A stretch of 8,021 nucleotides of DNA from a virus. Taxonomy: Monodnaviria > Loebvirae > Hofneiviricota > Faserviricetes > Tubulavirales > Inoviridae. The DNA is taken from positions 1 to 8,021 of IMG/VR virus record IMGVR_UViG_2695420487_000001. One strand, written 5' to 3'. Both the position numbers and the translations under genes were made by a program. Below, piece after piece: positions 1 to 8,021 of the stretch; position 1 is the first letter of the stretch; every line of letters begins with the position of its first letter. The notes under the pieces were generated by a model. It was not told where the DNA came from. It saw only the letters and a program-made list of their open reading frames with translations, and made no database searches.

Positions 1-135
1 CTGTCGTTCTCAAAATCGGTGGAGCTGCATGACAAGGTCATCGGGCATTATCTGAACATAAAACACTATCAGTAAGTTGGAGTCACTACCCAATTTTTCC
101 ATTGTGGAACTGATAGGGTTCAGTTTCCTCTTATT

Positions 136-157
136 AAACCGTGGTTTCCCACGGTTT
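136..157. other. Perfect 9-bp stem hairpin (aaaccgtgg / ccacggttt, 4-nt loop) immediately beyond the stop of the minus-strand membrane-protein gene
   Basis: Read directly: 136-144 aaaccgtgg, loop tttc, 149-157 ccacggttt. Flanks are only weakly T-rich (tttgaaatt on +), so function as a terminator is uncertain. Confidence 0.3.
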
Positions 158-161
158 GAAA

Positions 162-584
162 TTACCAGTGATATGAATTTCTTCTGTGCCACCAATAAAG
201 CAGCCCGTATCCGATGATAAGAATTCCGAAAAACATCAACGACATTCCCCAGCCAGTTCCATACCACGAAACCATATCATCGAAAACCAATCCACCCGTT
301 TCACGTACTCCGGCAGCTTCCTTAAGGATTGGTTTGAATACCGGAATCAGAAGGGCAATCGCCAGTGGAGCACCCCAGCGAACAAGACCTGTTTCCATTT
401 TGATCCCGAAAAAGATCCCCGCCCCAACAACAAGCAGCCAGACTATCAGGCTAGGCGCAGTTTCCAGAGCTGTTTGCCATTCAACATCGAAAGTTTTCAT
501 TAGCCAGGCAACAACTGCCAGACAGAAAGCAAATATGCCCACGACAACCAGTTCAACGCCGCTTGTTTCGTTATTTCTACTCAT
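162..584 (-). CDS. Hypothetical small integral membrane protein (about 4 predicted TM helices), 140 aa; phage accessory gene or flanking host gene
   Basis: Intact 140-aa ORF with four long hydrophobic stretches (e.g. VELVVVGIFAFCLAVVAWLM, GWGMSLMFFGILIIGYGLLYWW). AAGGA Shine-Dalgarno-like motif about 8 nt upstream of the ATG on the minus strand. The overlapping opposite-strand ORFs lack such features. No family recognised by eye. Confidence 0.6.
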   Translation of the reverse strand: MSRNNETSGVELVVVGIFAFCLAVVAWLMKTFDVEWQTALETAPSLIVWLLVVGAGIFFGIKMETGLVRWGAPLAIALLIPVFKPILKEAAGVRETGGLVFDDMVSWYGTGWGMSLMFFGILIIGYGLLYWWHRRNSYHW

Positions 585-626
585 CCTTTTGATCCTTTTT
601 CACTGTTCAAAATTCGCGCAATAAAG

Positions 627-655
627 AACGTGCAGTGTTGGTAATACTGCACGTT
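627..655 (-). terminator. Candidate intrinsic terminator between the repressor gene and the membrane-protein gene (perfect 10-bp stem, 9-nt loop, CTTTATT on the minus strand)
   Basis: 627-636 aacgtgcagt and 646-655 actgcacgtt are exact reverse complements. On the minus strand the hairpin is followed by ctttattgcg. It lies 28 nt downstream of the repressor stop (683). Confidence 0.4.
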
Positions 656-682
656 AGTCTCATTCCTGAGACCGCTAGCTTT

Positions 683-1129
683 TTACTCTTCGCCTGACAA
701 TGCTTTTTTCATAAACATTTTTGTACTGTAAGTATATGAACTTAATGCAGAAACTTGCCTTGCAAGTGCCAGAATATCTTGCTTCTCCAGTGTTCTGATG
801 TTCCACACGATGAAATTATGCGCGTTCGTGGTTTCTTCATCAGTATATCCGTCCGCAGAAGTTATCAGCTTTCGCTCAGTAGCTTCTTCTTTAACATCAA
901 GAGCATAGCCATAAGCTAAGGTGTTCAAATCTGCGCCAGTAATTTTAGCTATCTGAATTATATCGCTGAATTTAGGTTCAGTTTTGCCGGACGCTATCCT
1001 GACCAGCGTACTTACGCTAATGCCAGTCTTCTCGGCCAGTTCTTCATAAGTCGAGTGTTCCAGAATTGCCTTTTTTATACGTTCTGCTCTCTGTTTGTCC
1101 GCCATAACTTCATGCTCATTGTTGCCCAT
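683..1129 (-). CDS. Helix-turn-helix (XRE / Cro-C1-like) transcriptional regulator, putative prophage repressor, 148 aa
   Basis: Intact ORF. The N-terminal segment EELAEKTGISVSTLVRIASGK has a typical HTH pattern. GGAG lies 7 nt upstream of the ATG at 1129. The gene is transcribed divergently from the replication gene gII, the arrangement seen for repressors of temperate filamentous phages (e.g. CTXphi rstR). The C-terminal roughly 80 residues are unassigned. Confidence 0.8.
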   Translation of the reverse strand: MGNNEHEVMADKQRAERIKKAILEHSTYEELAEKTGISVSTLVRIASGKTEPKFSDIIQIAKITGADLNTLAYGYALDVKEEATERKLITSADGYTDEETTNAHNFIVWNIRTLEKQDILALARQVSALSSYTYSTKMFMKKALSGEE

Positions 1130-1300
1130 CTACTTCGCTCCATCTTAACAGTGGTTTTTCAATAGTCTGATTACATGCTCAGTTCTGACAATTTAAACAT
1201 TGCAAATGTATTGACTGTCAGATCTGAGCATATTACATTGTGACCATTCAATCTGCTCACAAATGACTATTGACACATATTTTGATGGGTGTGACTACTT
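1130..1300. promoter_or_regulatory. Divergent control region between repressor and gII: candidate sigma70 promoter for gII (-35 TTGACT 1211-1216, 17-bp spacer, -10 TACATT 1234-1239) overlapping a 21-nt-arm imperfect inverted repeat (1170-1190 / 1216-1236)
   Basis: Hexamers read from the sequence. The repeat arms match as reverse complements at 17 of 21 positions. A second TTGACA occurs at 1270-1275 without a convincing -10. No experimental support. Confidence 0.4.
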
Positions 1301-2353
1301 ATGATCGACTGGTTTACCGGAATTCTTCCTTGCACACACCGACCGTTACCGGCCGGTAGTGTCGTCAGCGTTGATGCTGACGGTGCAGTGGAGTGGGAAA
1401 CAGTAAAGCGGTTGACCGTTCGCGGTTCATACGAATCCACAATGAAAGTACGATCTGTTGGATCAGACGGGGAGGGCCGGGCAACTCATCTTTATATTGA
1501 CGGAAATCCGTCAAAATTTCTTCAGGGGCATTCTGTTATTGGCTCCGATGATTTGCAGGGGCTGGTATTAACCGCTTACGCAAGAATATTGGCATTACTT
1601 CATATTCCTCATGATCTACCATCCTATCGTCAGGTAATGGCAGGGCAATTTAAGATCTCACGCATTGATATTAACTACATGTATTCATTATCAACGCTGG
1701 AAAATGTCCGCGCATGGCTATATGCCGCAGAATTCAAGGCTAAAACTCGCCATGGTCGCGCCTGTGGTAAAGGTGGAACTGTTTACTTAGGGAAAAACTC
1801 CCGGCGGTGGAGCCTGAAATTTTATTCAAAATATGATGAGCATATTTCTGGTAAAAAAGGACACCAGATAGCAGAAGAGTTTGTTAAAGCTGGCTTACTT
1901 GACTGGTCTAAAGATAAATTACGAATTGAATTGACGCTAAGAACAACAGAATTAATTGACTTAAACCTTACGCTTGGCAGTAACTGGAATATCGATACTC
2001 CAAACAAATTATTCTCTGAATATGTAGGGAGAATAGAAATGAATCAAAATGCCATTTTGACCGATGAAAAAATAGTTAAACTGCCGAGAAAAATACAATC
2101 AACATATTTACTGTGGAAGCAGGGCGCAAACATGAAAGAAATGCTTCCAAAGCCAACATTTTACAGGCACCGAAAAGAATTATTGTCTTTCGGGATAGAT
2201 ATTAATTTTTATTGTGAATCCCCTGATTCAAATAATGTTGTTCCATTAGTAAGAACACTTGAAGCTAAACCAGCCCAAATCCCTACATGGGTTTATGAGA
2301 AAGGTTTTATTTTTGATTACAACCGTATTTCACATGCCAGTAACTGGCATTAA
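1301..2353 (+). CDS. gII: Replication initiation protein pII (rolling-circle nickase, Phage_CRI-type), 350 aa
   Basis: Starts MID... like fd/M13 pII. Conserved blocks recognised from memory of M13 pII: KFLQGHSVIGSDDL vs KVLQGHNVFGTTDL, KISRIDINY vs TISRIDATF, NNVVPLVR near the C-terminus. It is followed by the gV/gVII/gIX/gVIII block as in Ff/IKe. Confidence 0.9.
   Translation: MIDWFTGILPCTHRPLPAGSVVSVDADGAVEWETVKRLTVRGSYESTMKVRSVGSDGEGRATHLYIDGNPSKFLQGHSVIGSDDLQGLVLTAYARILALLHIPHDLPSYRQVMAGQFKISRIDINYMYSLSTLENVRAWLYAAEFKAKTRHGRACGKGGTVYLGKNSRRWSLKFYSKYDEHISGKKGHQIAEEFVKAGLLDWSKDKLRIELTLRTTELIDLNLTLGSNWNIDTPNKLFSEYVGRIEMNQNAILTDEKIVKLPRKIQSTYLLWKQGANMKEMLPKPTFYRHRKELLSFGIDINFYCESPDSNNVVPLVRTLEAKPAQIPTWVYEKGFIFDYNRISHASNWH
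2039..2353 (+). CDS. gX: pX-like protein from in-frame internal start within gII (C-terminal 104 aa of pII)
   Basis: ATG at 2039 is in frame with gII, and MNQNAILTDE aligns with the M13 pX start (MNIYDDSAV) by position within pII. Inferred by analogy only. Confidence 0.45.
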   Translation: MNQNAILTDEKIVKLPRKIQSTYLLWKQGANMKEMLPKPTFYRHRKELLSFGIDINFYCESPDSNNVVPLVRTLEAKPAQIPTWVYEKGFIFDYNRISHASNWH

Positions 2354-2364
2354 AGGAGCGTGAT

Positions 2365-2682
2365 ATGTCTAATTATGGTCTTTTTGTAAAAGGTAAAATG
2401 CTTGGTGCTCGTCAGCGTAATAAAGTCAATGGTCAGGGCTATTACAATGAAATTGGTATCGGTTTAGAGATCCCTGATGGTTTTGGCGGTACTAAGCAAG
2501 ACCAAATAATTATTCGTGTATCACAGTCCCTTGTGAACGCCGGAGTCATGAATCAAGCCAATAGTTTTACGGGGAAATTAGTTCAAATCCCTGTATATGT
2601 TCGTGTCTGGTCAATGGAGGGTAGAGAAGGTGTGACTTATAATATTTCATCAGATGGTGGGATCACTGAAATAAAAGGTTAA
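2365..2682 (+). CDS. gV: Putative ssDNA-binding protein (gene V position), 105 aa; not obviously similar to fd/IKe pV
   Basis: Intact ORF with a strong AGGAG Shine-Dalgarno 8 nt upstream. It occupies the gene V slot between gII and gVII. Function is assigned from synteny, not from sequence similarity. Confidence 0.55.
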   Translation: MSNYGLFVKGKMLGARQRNKVNGQGYYNEIGIGLEIPDGFGGTKQDQIIIRVSQSLVNAGVMNQANSFTGKLVQIPVYVRVWSMEGREGVTYNISSDGGITEIKG

Positions 2683-2684
2683 TT

Positions 2685-2771
2685 ATGGATGATGTTATTC
2701 AAATATTAATAGCATCCGGCATTGTTATTTCTTTTGGTCTTGGTGCTATTACCGCAGGTGTCATTCGTTAA
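2685..2771 (+). CDS. gVII: Minor coat protein pVII-like, 28 aa
   Basis: Small hydrophobic peptide MDDVIQILIASGIVISFGLGAITAGVIR. It starts 3 nt after the gV stop and its stop overlaps the next start (TAATG), as in Ff phages. Resembles M13 pVII (…IQISVVLCFALGIIAGGQR). Confidence 0.6.
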   Translation: MDDVIQILIASGIVISFGLGAITAGVIR

Positions 2772-2866
2772 TGTATATTGTGTATTTCTTCGGGGCTTAT
2801 ACCTTAGGATTTGCCCTTTTCTATGCGGTCGGTTCGTTTAAAACATTATCTGACCGATTAATGTAA
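2771..2866 (+). CDS. gIX: Minor coat protein pIX-like, 31 aa
   Basis: MYIVYFFGAYTLGFALFYAVGSFKTLSDRLM. AGGTG lies upstream and the start overlaps the gVII stop. Position and size match Ff pIX (…YFTRLM…). Confidence 0.6.
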   Translation: MYIVYFFGAYTLGFALFYAVGSFKTLSDRLM

Positions 2867-2895
2867 TAAAACCTAACTTAAATGGAGTTATTTAT

Positions 2896-3138
2896 ATGAA
2901 AGTCATTTCTGTTATTAAATCTAAAATTGCTGTGGCTTCAACCGCACTTTTTGTTTCTGCAAGTTGTTTTGCTGCTGATGGCGCAACGGGTAGCACTGAC
3001 TATGCAGGTCAGGCAATGGATTCACTGCTGACTCAGGCAAACGATCTTATTGCAAAAGTATGGCCTGCTGTTGTCGCTGTCGTTGGTGCGGGTCTTGCCA
3101 TTCGTTTGTTTAAAAAGTTCTCTTCGAAAGCAGTTTAA
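2896..3138 (+). CDS. gVIII: Major coat protein pVIII precursor (signal peptide plus about 54-aa mature coat), IKe-like
   Basis: GGAG 7 nt upstream. Signal peptide ends ...SASCFA. The mature part ADGATGSTDYAGQAMDSLLTQANDLIAKVWPAVVAVVGAGLAIRLFKKFSSKAV closely resembles the IKe/Ff coat (…IRLFKKFSSKAV), with acidic N-terminus, hydrophobic core and basic C-terminus. Confidence 0.9.
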   Translation: MKVISVIKSKIAVASTALFVSASCFAADGATGSTDYAGQAMDSLLTQANDLIAKVWPAVVAVVGAGLAIRLFKKFSSKAV

Positions 3139-3147
3139 AATTCACTC

Positions 3148-3171
3148 AGGGGCACTCGTTGCCCCTTTATT
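3148..3171 (+). terminator. Rho-independent terminator after gVIII (stem GGGGCA / TGCCCC, then TTTATT)
   Basis: 3149-3154 ggggca pairs with 3160-3165 tgcccc and is followed by tttatt. This is the same position as the strong terminator after gene VIII in Ff phages. Confidence 0.7.
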
Positions 3172-3184
3172 AAAGCGGGTTATT

Positions 3185-4428
3185 ATGAAAAGGAAAATAT
3201 TAATTATTTCCGCTATTCTTATTTCTTCTTTTTCACATGCTGATTCATGGGAAAGCATTACTAAATCTACTTTTCAAAGCTCTGCCTATTCTGAAAGTAA
3301 GCAAATAACCAACCAAGATGGCACTAAACAAACTGTTTATTATATTGATGCAGCTATGCAGGCTTCTGCCTGTCAGGGGGCTAAAGACAGTGCTCAGGGT
3401 GTTTTTACTCAGGTTAAACCAACTTATGAGGGAGTATGGCCTAACTCTGAATTCCGTCTTGTGTTTTCTGACGCTTGTACCTACAGCGACTCTCCGGGCC
3501 AGAAAGATAAATACTGGAATTTAACCGCTTATATTATCGGTGATATTCAGCGTTCTATTCCTGATGAAAAACCCTCCGAGCCTACACCTGAAGAAATTTG
3601 TGAAGCTAAACCTCCTGAAGAAGGTGTATTTAATAATGTCTATCTTATGATGGTGATCGTTATATTTATTATAACGGTTGTGAATATGAGGCCACTGGCG
3701 TCATTGTTTGCCAGGGTGATGGCACTGTTTGTGCGGCGACATGGAAGCCTACCGGAACCGTAGCCGATCCTTCAGATAAGCCTTCTTCTCCTGCTGGCGA
3801 TGGTGGGGATACTGGAGGCGGGGATACGGGGGGTGGTGATACTGGAGGAGGTGATACAGGCGGTGGTAACTCAGGTGGCGGTAACTCAGGTGGTAATGGC
3901 TCAAGTATTACCAAAGGAGATATTCAGTCAGCTATTGAAGGTGCTTCACCTAAAATGGCCAGTGAGATTCATGATAAGTTAACAGAAAAAGACACCTCAT
4001 CTGATGATAAAAAATCGGCTGATGAACAGACTAAAAATAATATAAATCGTCTTGGTGACGCTATAAATAACCTTACTCGCGGAGCCGGACGTTTTGCTGA
4101 TCCTTCTGGCGGTGATTCTCGTTATGGGAAAGGGGATTCCGAATTAGACAGTGCTTCAACATTGGCTGAATCCGAATTAGGAATAGCTAAAGATTCTCAT
4201 GGTGCTTTATGGGAAGCATTCCTGAATAAAGGTGCTATGCTCCCTAGTTTACCTAATGGTAATGGTTGTTCTGAACTTGTTATTTTCCCCGGTGAAATTT
4301 ATCAGATTGATATTGAATGCGATAAATTACTTACTATCAAAGATGCGCTTTCATGGATTTTTTATTGCCTTACCTTCTGGTATGTATTTACGTCTTTAAC
4401 CTCATTACTTCGTAAAGGAGGTGAGTAA
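3185..4428 (+). CDS. gIII: Adsorption / minor coat protein pIII, interrupted by a frameshift (N-terminal part in frame 2 to about 3643, remainder in frame 1 from about 3646); pseudogene or sequencing error
   Basis: Signal peptide [19 protein letters not shown]. The span 3185..4428 is 1244 nt, not a multiple of 3. Frame 1 after the shift gives [37 protein letters not shown] (like the fd N1 motif DRYANYEGCLWNATGVVVCTGDETQCYGTW), a Gly-rich linker (GGDTGGG repeats) and a C-terminal domain ending …[36 protein letters not shown] (like fd …CDKINLFRGVFAFLLYVATFMYVFSTFANILRNKES). Frame 1 has no start codon near the shift, so the two parts are one gene. Confidence 0.8.
3796..3900. repeat. Tandem near-identical short repeats encoding the glycine-rich linker of pIII (GGDTGGG x4, GGNSGG x2)
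   Basis: Direct reading: ggtggggatactggaggc / ggggatacggggggt / ggtgatactggagga / ggtgatacaggcggt / ggtaactcaggtggc / ggtaactcaggtggt. The reverse complement produces the spurious proline-rich ORF 3669..3914. Confidence 0.8.
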
Positions 4429-4769
4429 TGCCTTTATTATTAGGTATTCCTGCACTATTGCGTTTTCTTATTGGGCTTGTTCCTTTATTTATTGGCTATG
4501 TGGCAAGCTTCCTCGCACGCCTTGCGACTAAAACAGGATTGATAGCTGTAGCATTAGTTGCATTAATTACAACAACTGTCACTCTCTTAATGCAATATCT
4601 TGCTGAGGTTATGTACAATGGCCTTCCTGCTGATTTTTCACATTTAATTGCATCTGTCTTACCAGACCATTTTCAGGCCTGTGTTAATGTCATTATGATT
4701 ACTCGAATTAGCGTTTTTGTTTTCGATTTAAAACAAAAATTCCTTGATTATGCAAACAAGGTGATTTGA
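4428..4769 (+). CDS. gVI: Minor coat protein pVI, 113 aa
   Basis: [16 protein letters not shown]… resembles M13 pVI MPVLLGIPLLLRFLGF…, and …VFVFDLKQKF resembles …IFIFDVKQKI. Strong AAGGAGGTGA Shine-Dalgarno. The start overlaps the gIII stop and the stop overlaps the gI start. Confidence 0.9.
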   Translation: MPLLLGIPALLRFLIGLVPLFIGYVASFLARLATKTGLIAVALVALITTTVTLLMQYLAEVMYNGLPADFSHLIASVLPDHFQACVNVIMITRISVFVFDLKQKFLDYANKVI

Positions 4770-5864
4770 ATGACGGTTCATGTCGTAACAGGGAAATTAG
4801 GTTCAGGTAAGACACTGGTTAGTGTTGCCAGAATACAGGAAAGACTAGCTAAAGGCTGTCCTGTAGCCACTAATCTAGATATTAAACTACATAATATGCC
4901 CATGGTTGGTCGTTATGCGAAAAAAACACGCGTGATTCGTGTCCCTGACAAACCTTCATTAAATGATCTGCTGGCTATTGGTGTAGGCAATACTTCCTAT
5001 GATGAATCACGTAATGGTCTACTGGTTCTTGATGAATGTGGGACTTGGTTTAATTCCCGTTCGTGGGGGGATAAAGACAGACAGCCAGTTATTGACTGGT
5101 TTTTGCATGCCCGTAAATTAGGCTGGGATATTATTTTTCTGATTCAGGATATTTCGATTATGGACAAGCAAGCACGGCTGGCGCTTGCGGAGCATGTTGT
5201 TTATTGTCGTCGTTCAGATAAGTTAAACATCCCATTTATTGGTTCTTTCATGAATATAATTTCAGGTGCTCGTTTTTCTTTACCAAAGGTTCACTTTGGT
5301 ATTGTTAAATATGGTGACAACGTTAATTCAATAACTGTTGATAAATGGATGTATACCGGAAAGTCATTATATTCCGCCTACAATACAAAACAGGCTTTTA
5401 CTGATAATTATCCGCATGGTGCTTATTCGCTTTTGCCGCCATTTATTACACATGGTCAGTTTTCCGTTAACAAAGGGTTTAATTATTATATGCGCCTCAC
5501 GAAAATTTACTTTCGAAAATCAAACCGATTAATATTAATGCTTTCATTTCTGGCATTGGGGCTTGGACTTGGCTTCTGGCTACAATCTGGTAAGAATGCT
5601 GATGAGATTTCGGCTATTAAATCTGCTCATGCTGAACAGGTGAGGGCAGTAACTCCTGACAGTACCAGCGATTTACCGAGACTATCAATTAATTCCTTCT
5701 CTCAACTTGGTTTTGATGTTTCCGTTACGTTTGTTGATGCTAAGGGTATGAAGTACCAGTATTTTGATTTAATTAAAGATGGTTATTCTGTTGATATTAA
5801 AGATGCCTGCCGAATTGTTATCAGAAAAGGCCGTTATTTACAAAACATCACCTGCCAGGAGTAA
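4770..5864 (+). CDS. gI: Assembly protein pI (Zot-like P-loop ATPase), 364 aa
   Basis: Walker A motif GKLGSGKT at the N-terminus. Long stretches nearly identical to remembered M13 pI (VTGKLGSGKTLVSV, LLVLDECGTWFNSRSW, IDWFLHARKLGWDIIFL, DKQARLALAEHVVYCRR). C-terminal TM segment LILMLSFLALGLGLGFWL. Confidence 0.95.
   Translation: MTVHVVTGKLGSGKTLVSVARIQERLAKGCPVATNLDIKLHNMPMVGRYAKKTRVIRVPDKPSLNDLLAIGVGNTSYDESRNGLLVLDECGTWFNSRSWGDKDRQPVIDWFLHARKLGWDIIFLIQDISIMDKQARLALAEHVVYCRRSDKLNIPFIGSFMNIISGARFSLPKVHFGIVKYGDNVNSITVDKWMYTGKSLYSAYNTKQAFTDNYPHGAYSLLPPFITHGQFSVNKGFNYYMRLTKIYFRKSNRLILMLSFLALGLGLGFWLQSGKNADEISAIKSAHAEQVRAVTPDSTSDLPRLSINSFSQLGFDVSVTFVDAKGMKYQYFDLIKDGYSVDIKDACRIVIRKGRYLQNITCQE
5490..5864 (+). 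CDS. gXI: pXI-like protein from in-frame internal start within gI (codon 241)
   Basis: MRLTKIYFRKS aligns with the M13 pXI start MKLTKIYLKKFS. It is in frame with gI. No obvious Shine-Dalgarno, so expression is inferred only by analogy. Confidence 0.45.
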   Translation: MRLTKIYFRKSNRLILMLSFLALGLGLGFWLQSGKNADEISAIKSAHAEQVRAVTPDSTSDLPRLSINSFSQLGFDVSVTFVDAKGMKYQYFDLIKDGYSVDIKDACRIVIRKGRYLQNITCQE

Positions 5865-5871
5865 TATTATT

Positions 5872-7137
5872 ATGCGTTTATTTTTCATTGCTATCTTATT
5901 CACTTATTCTTTTTGCGTTTCTGCTGAAACTGTTAACCTGAATAATTCATCCGTTCGCTCATTTGTCCAGTGGTATTCATCAAAAACTGGCAAGCCCGTT
6001 ATTGTTAATCCTGATGTTAAAGGAACCGTAACGGTATTTAATGCTGATGTTAATCCCACAAATATTGATAGTTTCTTCAAATCTGTACTGAATGCTAACG
6101 GATTTGTCATGCTTTCGGGTAATCCTGCAGTAGTCTCTTTGCCGTCAAAATTACCATCACAGATGGCGTCAGACCTTGATGATGCTGATATTCGGTCTTA
6201 TGACTCTTTCCCGTCTGAGCCATCTTATCAGCCAGCGCCAGTGGAGTTTACTGTCAGAAATTTTAAGCTGACAAAAGTTCGATCGTCTGATGTTCAGCAA
6301 CTGGTTAAAATTTATCTGGATTCTAATGGCGGGGGTAATGTTGTGGATTATCCTGGCAATAACTCCCTGATTGTTTCCGCACCTGATGAGCTGCTTCCCG
6401 TCCTTTCCGATTTCATCAATTCAGTGGATGTTGCCCGCGATCAGGTTTTGATTCAGTCGCTGATGTTTGAAACCAGTCTGTCGGATGGTGTTGATTTGTC
6501 GTTTGCAGCCGGTTCTGCATCCGGGCATAAAGTAGCAGGGGGCTTTAATACTTCAGCATTGGGTAGCGCATTGTCGACTGCCGGCGGCTCTTTTGGCATT
6601 TTTGATGGTAATGTTCTGGCCGTATCCCTGCGTGCGGTGCAGAGTAACTCCCGGTCTAAGGTGATTTCAACGCCCCGGATTCTTACCCAGTCTGGTCAGA
6701 CAGGCTATATTTCTGTTGGTAAAAATGTACCCTTTATCACGGGTAAAGTTACGGGTGAATCTGCCGGGGTAAATAATCCGTTTCAGACCATTGAACGTCA
6801 TGATGTTGGCGTATCTCTGAAGGTGACGCCTGTTGTTATGGGGAACGGCCAGCTTGTACTTACTATTGATACCCGCGCTGATTCCATCAGCAACGATGAC
6901 CAGGCATCTGATATTATTACGAACCAGCGTCAGATACAGACAACAGTTCAGATTAAGGATGGCCAGACGCTCTTACTTGGTGGGCTGATTGATTCATCAT
7001 CCAGCAATGCTGACCGTTCTGTACCGTTTATCAGTAAAATTCCGGTGATTGGCTGGCTTTTCAGGAGTAAAGCTGACAGTAATGAGCAACGCATTATGTA
7101 TGTTCTGCTGACCGCTCATATTATTCGCGCGCTTTGA
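5872..7137 (+). CDS. gIV: Outer-membrane secretin pIV (phage assembly/export channel), 421 aa
   Basis: Start chosen at MRLFFIAILFTYSFCVSA (signal peptide) with AGGAG about 10 nt upstream; the track ORF start at 5779 lies inside gI. Secretin blocks closely match remembered M13 pIV: VIVNPDVKGTVTVF, SGQTGYISVGKNVPFITGKVTGESAGVNNPFQTIERHDVGVSLKV, DGQTLLLGGL, VPFISKIPVIGWLF. Confidence 0.95.
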   Translation: MRLFFIAILFTYSFCVSAETVNLNNSSVRSFVQWYSSKTGKPVIVNPDVKGTVTVFNADVNPTNIDSFFKSVLNANGFVMLSGNPAVVSLPSKLPSQMASDLDDADIRSYDSFPSEPSYQPAPVEFTVRNFKLTKVRSSDVQQLVKIYLDSNGGGNVVDYPGNNSLIVSAPDELLPVLSDFINSVDVARDQVLIQSLMFETSLSDGVDLSFAAGSASGHKVAGGFNTSALGSALSTAGGSFGIFDGNVLAVSLRAVQSNSRSKVISTPRILTQSGQTGYISVGKNVPFITGKVTGESAGVNNPFQTIERHDVGVSLKVTPVVMGNGQLVLTIDTRADSISNDDQASDIITNQRQIQTTVQIKDGQTLLLGGLIDSSSSNADRSVPFISKIPVIGWLFRSKADSNEQRIMYVLLTAHIIRAL

Positions 7138-7287
7138 TGGGGCCGTGGCGGGTGCGTTAAGCCCCGGTATGGCCACATCAAGAGCCGGATTTTACGTTTC
7201 ACCACGGAGCCTCTATATGGCCTTAAAACTGACAGGATATGAACAGAAAGACATCTTCTAGGTAATTCAATTACTTAGAGGTTTTTT

Positions 7288-7536
7288 ATGTCTGTAAAAA
7301 GCAGGGTGCGCGATCGACTCCCCAGTGGTCGCATGAAGTCTTACCGTCGTGTTAGTTCACATTTTACCAGTTGTTCCAGGTGGTTTGATAAATCACCGTC
7401 CTGGTATCGCAATATGATGATGACCCGGCCAGAGCGCCGTGAAGTCAGAAAGCTTCTTAATCAGGTCTTGCGTGGTCGTGATGCTGACGGTATCGCATTT
7501 CCTGTCAGTAACAAGCCGTTTGCATGGTGGTGGTGA
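7288..7536 (+). CDS. Hypothetical small basic Arg/Trp-rich protein, 82 aa (accessory ORF between gIV and the dif-like site)
   Basis: Intact ORF with GAGG about 7 nt upstream of the ATG. High Arg/Ser/Trp content and the ending …FAWWW; no family recognised. It lies in a segment that looks GC-richer than the phage body. Coding status not verified. Confidence 0.4.
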   Translation: MSVKSRVRDRLPSGRMKSYRRVSSHFTSCSRWFDKSPSWYRNMMMTRPERREVRKLLNQVLRGRDADGIAFPVSNKPFAWWW

Positions 7537-7916
7537 ACTTTTTAGCCGCTAAAATTTAATGCTTACGAAGTTATCGTAAACTCCGGTCAGTGACAAAACT
7601 CGTTTTGTTGCTGTCCGGGGTTGGCCAAGCCGTACAGTTTTCATTTTGAGCGTTATAGCTGATTCGGCGCGGCAGCGTTCATCTTATCTGACATTGTGGC
7701 TGTATTTCTGGGGAAGGTTTCATGTATCAGGTACAGATTTACCAACTGCAACTGGATGAACAGGCCTGATTGGTGAGGTCAGGCCGTTCACTTACTGCTG
7801 ACAGACATTTGATTCTGATTCGTCTGGAGAAACGGATGATTTTGAATCACTGTCGATAGTTGCCAGTTGACGCCAAGTGTCAACGATTCCCGCCAGATTC
7901 TGCCATCCTTACCATT

Positions 7917-8010
7917 GGTGCGCATAATGTACGACTCGTTATGTTGAAAAGGCCGCTGCGAAAATCGAATCCCGCAGCGGCCTCTTTAGCATAACGTCAT
8001 TGTGCGAACC
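7917..8010. other. dif-like XerC/XerD recombination site pair in inverted orientation forming a roughly 94-nt imperfect palindrome (candidate attP / integration junction of an IMEX-type filamentous phage)
   Basis: 7917-7927 GGTGCGCATAA equals the E. coli dif XerC arm 11/11. It is followed by tgtacgactcg and by TTATGTTGAAA (7939-7949; dif XerD arm TTATGTTAAAT, 9/11). An inverted copy lies at 7984-8010: ctttagcataa (9/11 to the reverse-complemented XerD arm), then ttgtgcgaacc (9/11 to the reverse-complemented XerC arm). Between them is a perfect 10-bp GC stem. Confidence 0.65.
7951..7982. other. Central GC-rich stem-loop of the palindrome (ggccgctgcg / cgcagcggcc, 12-nt loop); could also act as a bidirectional terminator
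   Basis: 7951-7960 and 7973-7982 are exact reverse complements. The stem is followed by tcttt on the + strand and ttttcaac on the minus strand. Confidence 0.5.
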
Positions 8011-8021
8011 AAAAATCTCAA

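Follow-up and report, generated by a model that had tools for sequence, protein, structure and literature searches.

What is the function of a small, strongly basic protein that is encoded between the last morphogenesis gene of a filamentous phage and the site at which this phage joins the bacterial chromosome? This question is raised by an 8,021-nucleotide (nt) stretch of DNA from a member of the family Inoviridae (IMG/VR record IMGVR_UViG_2695420487_000001, positions 1 to 8,021), which was analysed over its full length and is referred to here as the window. Between the gIV secretin gene and a dif-like site, it contains an open reading frame (ORF) of 82 amino acids (aa), which is located at positions 7288-7536 of the plus strand (ATG at 7288, TGA at 7534-7536). 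Comparisons with related loci indicate that this ORF is a gene, that it is preceded by a leader ORF whose end folds over its start site and that it is inherited together with structured DNA next to dif. As the best explanation we tentatively propose an accessory gene of an inovirus of the UPphi group with a CTX-type hairpin attP, which would be gated by its leader and act on dif-proximal DNA. Loci of our survey are given by number (L004 and so on) where they have to be told apart.

The 82-aa gene and its leader

The deduced protein is rich in arginine and aromatic residues (14 Arg, 5 Lys, 5 Trp), has a mass of ~10 kDa and an isoelectric point (pI) of 11.63. Position and length are as given in the preliminary description, which had noted a highly basic ORF at this place. 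The core motif of the protein reads KSPSWYRN..TRPERREV...G.D.DGIAFPV.NKPF.WWW. Full-length homologues are nearly all 79-83 aa long and were found in Escherichia, Salmonella, Yersinia pestis, Pantoea, Brenneria, Pectobacterium, Xenorhabdus and Zobellella. A word-indexed search yielded 24 clusters of relatives in Salmonella, Pantoea, Brenneria, Xenorhabdus, Klebsiella and E. coli, the intact ones nearly all with a length of 82 aa and an identity of 66-94%; the 82-aa gene of Y. pestis was also recovered in a genome scan. A minority of the protein clusters consists of truncated or frameshifted variants, as is expected for prophages. In E. coli 7CC (L033, 1688-1935), the gene is annotated as frameshifted in RefSeq, for which prophage decay or a sequencing error are possible reasons.

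Comparison of 14 distinct nucleotide sequences with the method of Nei and Gojobori resulted in a median pairwise ratio of nonsynonymous to synonymous substitutions (dN/dS) of 0.145 over 80 pairs, while the off-frames gave 1.5 and 1.2. Values of 0.13-0.20 were also obtained within Zobellella and within Brenneria, including settings without a phage. The variable columns are distributed over the codon positions as 39/36/74, with an excess at the third position, and every other frame as well as the opposite strand contains stops. Rfam gave no match within the ORF; the only hit in the region is below threshold and lies on the attP stem. The low dN/dS, the third-position excess, the conserved length and the stops in the other frames indicate that the ORF is a real, coding gene under purifying selection. 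The reading frame is conserved in related elements, and the region after gIV differs from the non-coding DNA present at this place in Ff phages, in line with what had been suspected before.

A leader ORF of 14 codons and a stop is located upstream at 7217-7261 of the plus strand (MALKLTGYEQKDIF) and was recognised in an alignment of distant loci. All genuine leaders found share Tyr at position -7, Asp at -3, Ile at -2, Phe at -1 and the stop, without exception. Within enterobacterial leaders, the codons for G, Y, E, Q, D and I vary only synonymously (GGA/GGG/GGT/GGC, TAT/TAC, GAA/GAG, CAG/CAA, GAC/GAT, ATC/ATT). The pattern Y-x3-DIF-stop is kept in Zobellella (MMLYWYRSLDIF), in Aestuariibacter (MINIQGYYNKDIF), in metagenome-assembled genomes of gammaproteobacteria (MKNCLEGYFCKDIF), in a GC-rich element resembling integrative and conjugative elements (ICE; MHYLDQDIF) and in tailed-phage contigs, one of them with an endolysin (MNYMSYDIF); in a 42-kb viral contig, the leader reads MLIRWYFQKDIF. 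Since the invariant Tyr codon falls outside any stem, the constraint acts on the leader peptide.

The last codons of the leader and its stop (GACAUCUUCUAG...) form base pairs both with UUAGAGG, the Shine-Dalgarno sequence, and with the start-codon region AUGUC of the 82-aa gene. The resulting RNA hairpin spans 7250-7292 of the plus strand; its 5' arm GACAUCUUCUAGGUAAU comprises the end of the leader ORF, the partner arm AUUACUUAGAGG contains the Shine-Dalgarno sequence. The good ribosome-binding site described earlier is indeed present, with AGAGG at 7277-7281, 6 nt 5' of the ATG at 7288, but it is located together with the AUG inside this conserved hairpin. The fold was predicted for 13 of 13 distinct homologous leaders, with energies of -10.6 to -20 kcal/mol and with inner stems that differ in sequence. 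In an alignment of 12 distinct sequences, 99.4% of the cells are paired, compared to 32-60% with slid partners. A covariance model trained on 12 enterobacterial leader sequences recovered the element in four loci that were not part of the training (L044, L054, L057 and L041; E=1e-6 to 4e-4).

The locus features an upstream ORF with conservation at the level of the peptide, which ends in a hairpin that sequesters both the Shine-Dalgarno sequence and the AUG. Judged from its sequence, this design is one of translational attenuation or coupling. A ribosome that reaches Y-x3-DIF-stop, and probably pauses there, would melt the hairpin and expose the start site of the 82-aa gene. The protein would then be made rarely or only under some condition, and such gating suggests that it needs to be scarce or conditionally synthesised. 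An intrinsic terminator formed by the hairpin and the T-run at 7255-7287 was also considered, but relatives do not conserve the T-run, and termination was therefore not accepted as the main role.

Leader peptides that control translation are well established for the erm and cat attenuators, for TnaC, which stalls the ribosome at its stop codon, and for the coupling of mok and hok. Common to these systems and the window locus are a short upstream ORF, a 3' end that overlaps with a hairpin sequestering the Shine-Dalgarno sequence and AUG, and conserved residues of the nascent peptide. Unlike in those systems, the gene under the window leader encodes a protein of a mobile element, and stalling is presumed here. 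We know of no arrest peptide that matches Y-x3-D-I-F-stop. In two large viral contigs (L047, 3203-3239, minus strand; L053, 7437-7473, plus strand), a leader ending in LWYN(K/R)RRDIF and a stop is followed by a TAGAGG Shine-Dalgarno sequence and by a gene for an unrelated acidic protein that exceeds 200 aa. The device may hence not be confined to the family of the 82-aa protein.

The dif-proximal module and the folded attP

The position of the gene was surveyed in the close subfamily (at least ~50% identity) for loci with enough flanking sequence. In every dif-integrating element with sufficient 3' sequence the gene is dif-proximal, usually as the last gene before dif, and a dif-like XerC arm on the same strand follows 30-2000 nt downstream in each of these loci. 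It is found behind the secretin gene under three unrelated replication proteins, namely Phage_CRI (window and CUS-1), Phage_GPA (Xenorhabdus) and Rep_trans (L004 and Pectobacterium).

A near-perfect hairpin of 21 bp is located at 7579-7631 of the plus strand, with arms at 7579-7599 and 7602-7622 followed by GGCCAAGCC. It begins 43 nt after the stop of the gene and its conservation exceeds that of the neighbouring coding sequence. Compensatory changes keep it intact in CUS-1, L004, L009, L033, Pectobacterium and a Brenneria remnant, whereas Xenorhabdus phages and Zobellella elements lack it behind the gene. The hairpin is a candidate for a packaging signal, a minus-strand origin or a protein target. 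The stretch that follows is less constant. An acidic ORF of 58-65 aa (ELK..LLKDP..RAAYEAESQNP..., pI about 5) is intact in CUS-1, Ypfphi, Brenneria and Pectobacterium; the window retains a 3' remnant of this 'h2'/YPO2281-type ORF at 7721-7777 of the plus strand (the last ~55 nt, out of frame), and strain 7CC carries a different, reverse-oriented ORF of 81 aa in the slot at 7640-7777. Since the acidic ORF is deleted, kept or replaced among the elements, 7640-7777 is interpreted as a variable cargo slot. The 82-aa gene appears to work without the acidic partner, because it is intact both in the window, where the partner is deleted, and in L004, where it is absent.

Several Brenneria strains retain leader, gene, hairpin, acidic ORF and dif, but no other phage gene. 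Two Zobellella species and a metagenome contig feature leader and gene 32 nt from a dif-like site and beside a tyrosine recombinase. In the Zobellella loci (L074, 5343-7077; L041, 11-1881; L073), the dif-like site reads ACTTCGCATAATGTATATTATGTTAAAT and the recombinase has a length of 433 aa; it was found on opposite sides and in opposite orientations in different genomes. Either an inversion across the site or a small dif-associated element with a recombinase of its own could explain this arrangement. In Pectobacterium polaris (L032, 1-11260), a tandem of two distinct inoviruses occupies dif. Both end with the secretin gene and, behind it, a separate copy of the gene discussed here, one of 82 aa and one of 79 aa; no DIF leader precedes the 79-aa copy.

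The site next to the gene is a genuine dif-like site, as had been assumed in the preliminary description, and has the form of a CTX-type folded attP(+) at 7915-8012 of the plus strand, as delimited by folding of the single-stranded DNA (ssDNA) and alignment of the junctions. It starts with a perfect XerC arm (7917-7927, GGTGCGCATAA), which is followed by a central region of 11 nt (7928-7938, TGTACGACTCG), a XerD-like arm (7939-7949, TTATGTTGAAA) and a GC stem-loop (7950-7981). On the returning side, an inverted XerD-like arm ends at 7994 and is followed by CGTCA (7995-7999) and an inverted XerC-like arm at 8000-8010, which reads TTGTGCGAACC (reverse complement GGTTCGCACAA). As ssDNA, 7915-8012 is predicted to form a single long hairpin of -30.7 kcal/mol, compared to an average of -12.1 for shuffled sequences (z=-7.8). 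The fold rebuilds a XerC/XerD site with a bulged centre, which is the hallmark of CTX-type integrative mobile elements exploiting Xer (IMEX). The same architecture with other terminal stems was found in L003, L032, L034 and L025, which include Xenorhabdus, Pectobacterium and the CUS-1 replicative form, so that five gene-carrying lineages share a CTX-type hairpin attP. For Ypfphi, such a route had been proposed earlier (PMC4266046), and it proceeds without catalysis by XerD (PMC4266046, PMC3442271).

Comparison with complete E. coli genomes (megablast) identified strain SCPM-O-B-12142, which carries the window with 99.9% identity in the form of two tandem prophage copies with a period of 9078 bp adjoining hipBA. 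Alignment of the left, middle and right prophage junctions revealed the common core GGTGCGCATAATGTA, which places the crossover within this sequence, on the XerC side. Only the right end of the array features a regenerated, perfect dif of 28 bp (GGTGCGCATAATGTATATTATGTTAAAT), and no phage integrase is annotated in the prophage. The junction core and the dif regenerated at the right end show that the element integrated at dif by Xer recombination. Regeneration of dif on one side, the tandem array and the lack of an annotated integrase again agree with CTX-type IMEX integration. The window is a UPphi-type inovirus that is integrated in tandem at E. coli dif, and its gene content and position agree with those of the 'UPphi viruses' (Shapiro and Putonti 2020, PMC7307601).

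Based on the ORF listing and Pfam scans, the gene set of the window is that of a complete filamentous phage. A helix-turn-helix (HTH) repressor on the minus strand is followed by gII, gV, gVIII, gIII, gVI, gI/Zot and the gIV secretin gene. The latter is the final morphogenesis gene and occupies 5779-7137 of the plus strand (Pfam Secretin, E=8e-45; also supported by the RefSeq annotation of the identical prophage, in which gIV starts at window position 5873). It is followed at 7138-7216 of the plus strand by a UPphi-type-specific spacer without counterpart in CUS-1.

The CUS-1 comparison was made with a circular replicative form of a CUS-1-type phage (L034, NZ_CP128883, 9565 bp), which is labelled as an 'untypable plasmid' of E. 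coli and bears the 82-aa gene, the acidic ORF and the attP hairpin. The occurrence of the region in this 9.6-kb circle identifies it as phage DNA and not as host sequence flanking dif, a possibility that had been raised before. With blastn, nucleotide similarity between UPphi and CUS-1 was limited to 163-2690 (repressor, gII and gV; 90.6% identity) and 7217-8013 (79-96% identity), while the morphogenesis block at 2691-7216 is wholly exchanged. The module boundary in this comparison is position 7217, the first base of the ATG of the leader ORF. The preliminary description had inferred separate acquisition from a GC-rich segment that starts at 7138. The G+C content is indeed above the window average (0.472 for 7138-8021 and 0.498 for the 82-aa ORF, compared to 0.419 for the whole window), and a separate evolutionary history is supported for the segment 7217-8013, which is common to CUS-1 despite the unrelated morphogenesis block; however, there is no step in composition at 7138, since the 3' half of gIV already has values of 0.47-0.49. 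G+C content by itself does not delimit the module.

Taken together, the comparisons indicate that the gene, the hairpin at 7579-7631 and the folded attP form a dif-proximal module, which is passed on as a unit, with replication and morphogenesis modules being exchanged around it. The inner part of attP (7940-8011) also has matches of ~94% identity on more than 400 plasmids, most of them conjugative, from E. coli, Klebsiella, Salmonella and Pantoea. On the minus strand, this part reads as a terminator-like hairpin followed by TTTTC, and on pECO-cbb3 a similar sequence abuts the 3' end of a gene of the STM4504/CBY_0614 family. The plasmid match could reflect a shared terminator of a cargo gene or a relic of Xer-mediated plasmid insertion.

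Possible functions of the 82-aa protein

The 82-aa protein belongs to a large, previously undescribed family of small mobile-element proteins with 153 cluster representatives at E<1e-3, which share PSWW.N..TRP.RR...G.D.D..FP..KPH.YYW. Members also occur in tailed-phage, jumbo-phage and ICE-like contigs; the neighbourhoods of the distant homologues in tailed and jumbo phages gave no informative context. Pfam contains no family matching the ORF at E<=1. Scans of the ORF and 35 relatives against Pfam, NCBIfam, PHROGs and PADLOC yielded nothing beyond PHROGs families without assigned function and a weak match to PADLOC JetB2 (Wadjet kleisin-like subunit, N-terminal region), which covers residues 18-80 (E=2.5e-4), occurs in 4 of the 35 members and may be an artefact of composition. 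Searches of PDB sequences with the single sequence and with a profile gave hits at chance level only, profile-based word-indexed protein searches found no further named relatives, and a deposited phage collection gave no DNA match and a single weak protein match. The AlphaFold pLDDT (predicted local distance difference test) value was 52 with 12 sequences and 74 with 147 sequences; the latter model contains a confident long basic helix at residues 38-61. The extreme charge, the predicted Arg-lined helix and ~7 conserved aromatic residues point to binding of nucleic acid or of an acidic partner. A phage protein resembling bS21 was considered and rejected (hhalign probability 0.06% against E. 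coli RpsU, no Pfam Ribosomal_S21 hit). An anti-repressor directed at the HTH repressor of the phage was considered unlikely, since the gene is conserved across phages with different regulators.

Through all exchanges of the backbone, the gene remains the exclusive companion of the hairpin attP and of the hairpin next to it, and for this reason we infer an action on structured dif-proximal DNA. The protein, kept at low dosage by its leader, would bind nucleic acid and act on structured dif-proximal ssDNA. During integration by XerC, the protein might shield the folded attP or the pseudo-Holliday junction or make these structures more stable; alternatively, it might modulate recombination where the prophage meets the occupied dif. 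Activation of XerD would not be part of this role. Such an accessory role at or around the recombination step of the folded attP with dif is the reading we favour, as a tentative one that is somewhat more likely to be wrong than right. A precedent is Endonuclease III, a host cofactor of CTXphi integration (PMC3442271), which shows that a junction-binding accessory can favour XerC-only integration of a folded ssDNA attP. Endonuclease III is, however, a host enzyme without similarity to the 82-aa protein, so that the analogy is purely mechanistic.

Several points weigh against this proposal. Integration of the CTXphi type works with host factors alone. The distant family members in tailed-phage, jumbo-phage and ICE-like contigs have no dif site nearby, and therefore the activity of the family cannot be specific for Xer. 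The dif-proximity of the remnants is partly a by-product of prophage decay, as the right end of a prophage adjoins dif by construction, and the loci that share the module are related by descent and do not represent independent observations. No DNA-binding family was matched, either by fold or by sequence. Covariation in the leader hairpin is modest, with one pair changed on both sides and most pairs invariant. Finally, the published descriptions of these phages assign no function to the gene (PMC7307601, PMC4266046). A more far-reaching form of the proposal comprises a new phage-encoded Xer/dif accessory, active at attP, at the junction or in immunity at an occupied dif, which is switched by a new ribosome-arrest leader, Y-x3-D-I-F-stop, used across mobile elements. 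This combination is improbable.

The main rival is a host-directed, dosage-sensitive effector unrelated to Xer, for instance a toxin-like protein, a growth modulator or a factor of superinfection exclusion or anti-defence, which the leader hairpin would silence. The family occurs in many kinds of mobile elements and not in dif-integrating ones only, tight translational gating is typical of harmful proteins, and purifying selection is retained in the phage-less remnants. Toxin-antitoxin genes are common neighbours, and the weak JetB2 similarity (E=2.5e-4) points in the same direction; if real, it would suggest interference with a defence that targets plasmids and replicative forms. In a variant of this explanation, the basic protein might be paired with the acidic 'h2' of 58-65 aa, which follows it in CUS-1, Ypfphi, Brenneria and Pectobacterium. 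Against this pairing stand the window and L004, which have an intact gene without the partner. As no partner is obligatory and no toxin family was hit, the features of a type II toxin-antitoxin system are not present. The effector explanation also has to account for the absence of similarity to any toxin family and for the turnover of cargo genes in this region (h2, h4, h5), where the 82-aa gene stays constant across backbones. We regard it as a serious but rather doubtful alternative.

A protein that recognises the hairpin at 7579-7631 and delivers the phage ssDNA to the assembly site would account for the conserved hairpin 43 nt after the stop, which travels with the gene across morphogenesis modules. 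The model for such a packaging-signal binder is PSB15 of Xanthomonas phage phiLf-UK, which binds a DNA hairpin via DUF3653 (bioRxiv 10.1101/2024.03.19.585677). Like the window protein, it is a small, basic protein with an aromatic motif from an integrative inovirus; PSB15 makes DNA contact through a Trp/Phe motif and has a basic helix and a disordered tail (bioRxiv 10.1101/2024.03.19.585677). Yet it is encoded on the minus strand, and its DNA-binding part, DUF3653, is missing from the 82-aa protein, to which PSB15 has no relationship at the level of sequence. Furthermore, the hairpin is absent 3' of the gene in Xenorhabdus phages and Zobellella elements, the gene is conserved at loci without assembly genes, and UPphi already has a complete IKe-like set of assembly genes (PMC7307601). 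A packaging role is hence unlikely.

A Xer activation factor of the XafT type, as suggested in the preliminary description, would activate XerD independently of FtsK. XafT of TLCphi consists of HTH-XRE and DUF3653 and activates XerD on an attP without a proper XerD arm (PMC6744903, PMC9226527). Both are small proteins of elements that exploit XerCD/dif, and the position of the gene beside a Xer site is all that speaks for this assignment. The window protein lacks HTH-XRE and DUF3653: profile searches gave no match to DUF3653/XafT families in the ORF at E<=1, 35 family members had no DUF3653 match at E<=0.1, and no HTH signal was seen in the ORF or these relatives. The window attP carries both arms in its folded hairpin; because it is of the CTX type with the crossover on the XerC side, no XerD activator is needed. 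We consider this assignment highly improbable, while a recombination-accessory or DNA-binding role of another kind may apply and is favoured by the persistent dif-proximal position. Weakest of all is the idea, also raised earlier, that the ORF is not a gene and arose by chance in non-coding DNA or over a structured RNA or DNA element: a database annotation of nothing beyond 'hypothetical protein' and a few truncated or frameshifted copies stand against a dN/dS of 0.145, the excess of third-position variation, a length conserved across genera, stop-filled off-frames and opposite strand, and the absence of an Rfam match in the ORF, so that it can practically be dismissed.

Prior record and significance

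The 82-aa copies in E. coli NU14 and Y. pestis are 82% identical to the window ORF and share its position and its leader. NU14 is an O18:K1:H7-type strain, and we take its prophage to be CUS-1. For UPphi901, genes h1 and h2 were listed without homologues or predictable function (Shapiro and Putonti 2020, PMC7307601). For Ypfphi, YPO2280a and YPO2281 were described as located next to attR, with 'no predictable functions' and shared with CUS-1 (Derbise and Carniel 2014, PMC4266046). These genes belong to the same phage group and have the same position between gIV and dif as the window gene. Based on this comparison, the window ORF is almost certainly the same gene as found among the h1/h2 hypotheticals of UPphi901 and the YPO2280a/YPO2281 hypotheticals of Ypfphi and CUS-1; its counterpart in UPphi901 is most likely h1 or h2. 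Neither homology between UPphi and Ypfphi/CUS-1 nor the wider family, the selection pattern or the leader is reported in PMC7307601 and PMC4266046. This study adds the family to which the gene belongs, the pattern of selection on the gene, its constant association with the dif-proximal module and, most notably, the Y-x3-DIF-stop leader.

Plague bacilli and extra-intestinal pathogenic E. coli carry prophages of this kind (Ypfphi, CUS-1 and UPphi) at dif, and published accounts single out the unexplained genes at their ends as a key gap. The Y-x3-DIF-stop leader and its hairpin constitute a compact new candidate for translation controlled by a nascent peptide. Even if the 82-aa protein proved to be no more than a dosage-sensitive effector of an ordinary kind, the leader would keep its use as a regulatory part. 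The 82-aa gene is the only protein-coding gene that constantly accompanies the hairpin attP in inoviruses of very different make-up, and if these phages contribute a factor of their own to CTX-type integration or maintenance in enterobacteria, this gene is the obvious one to consider first.

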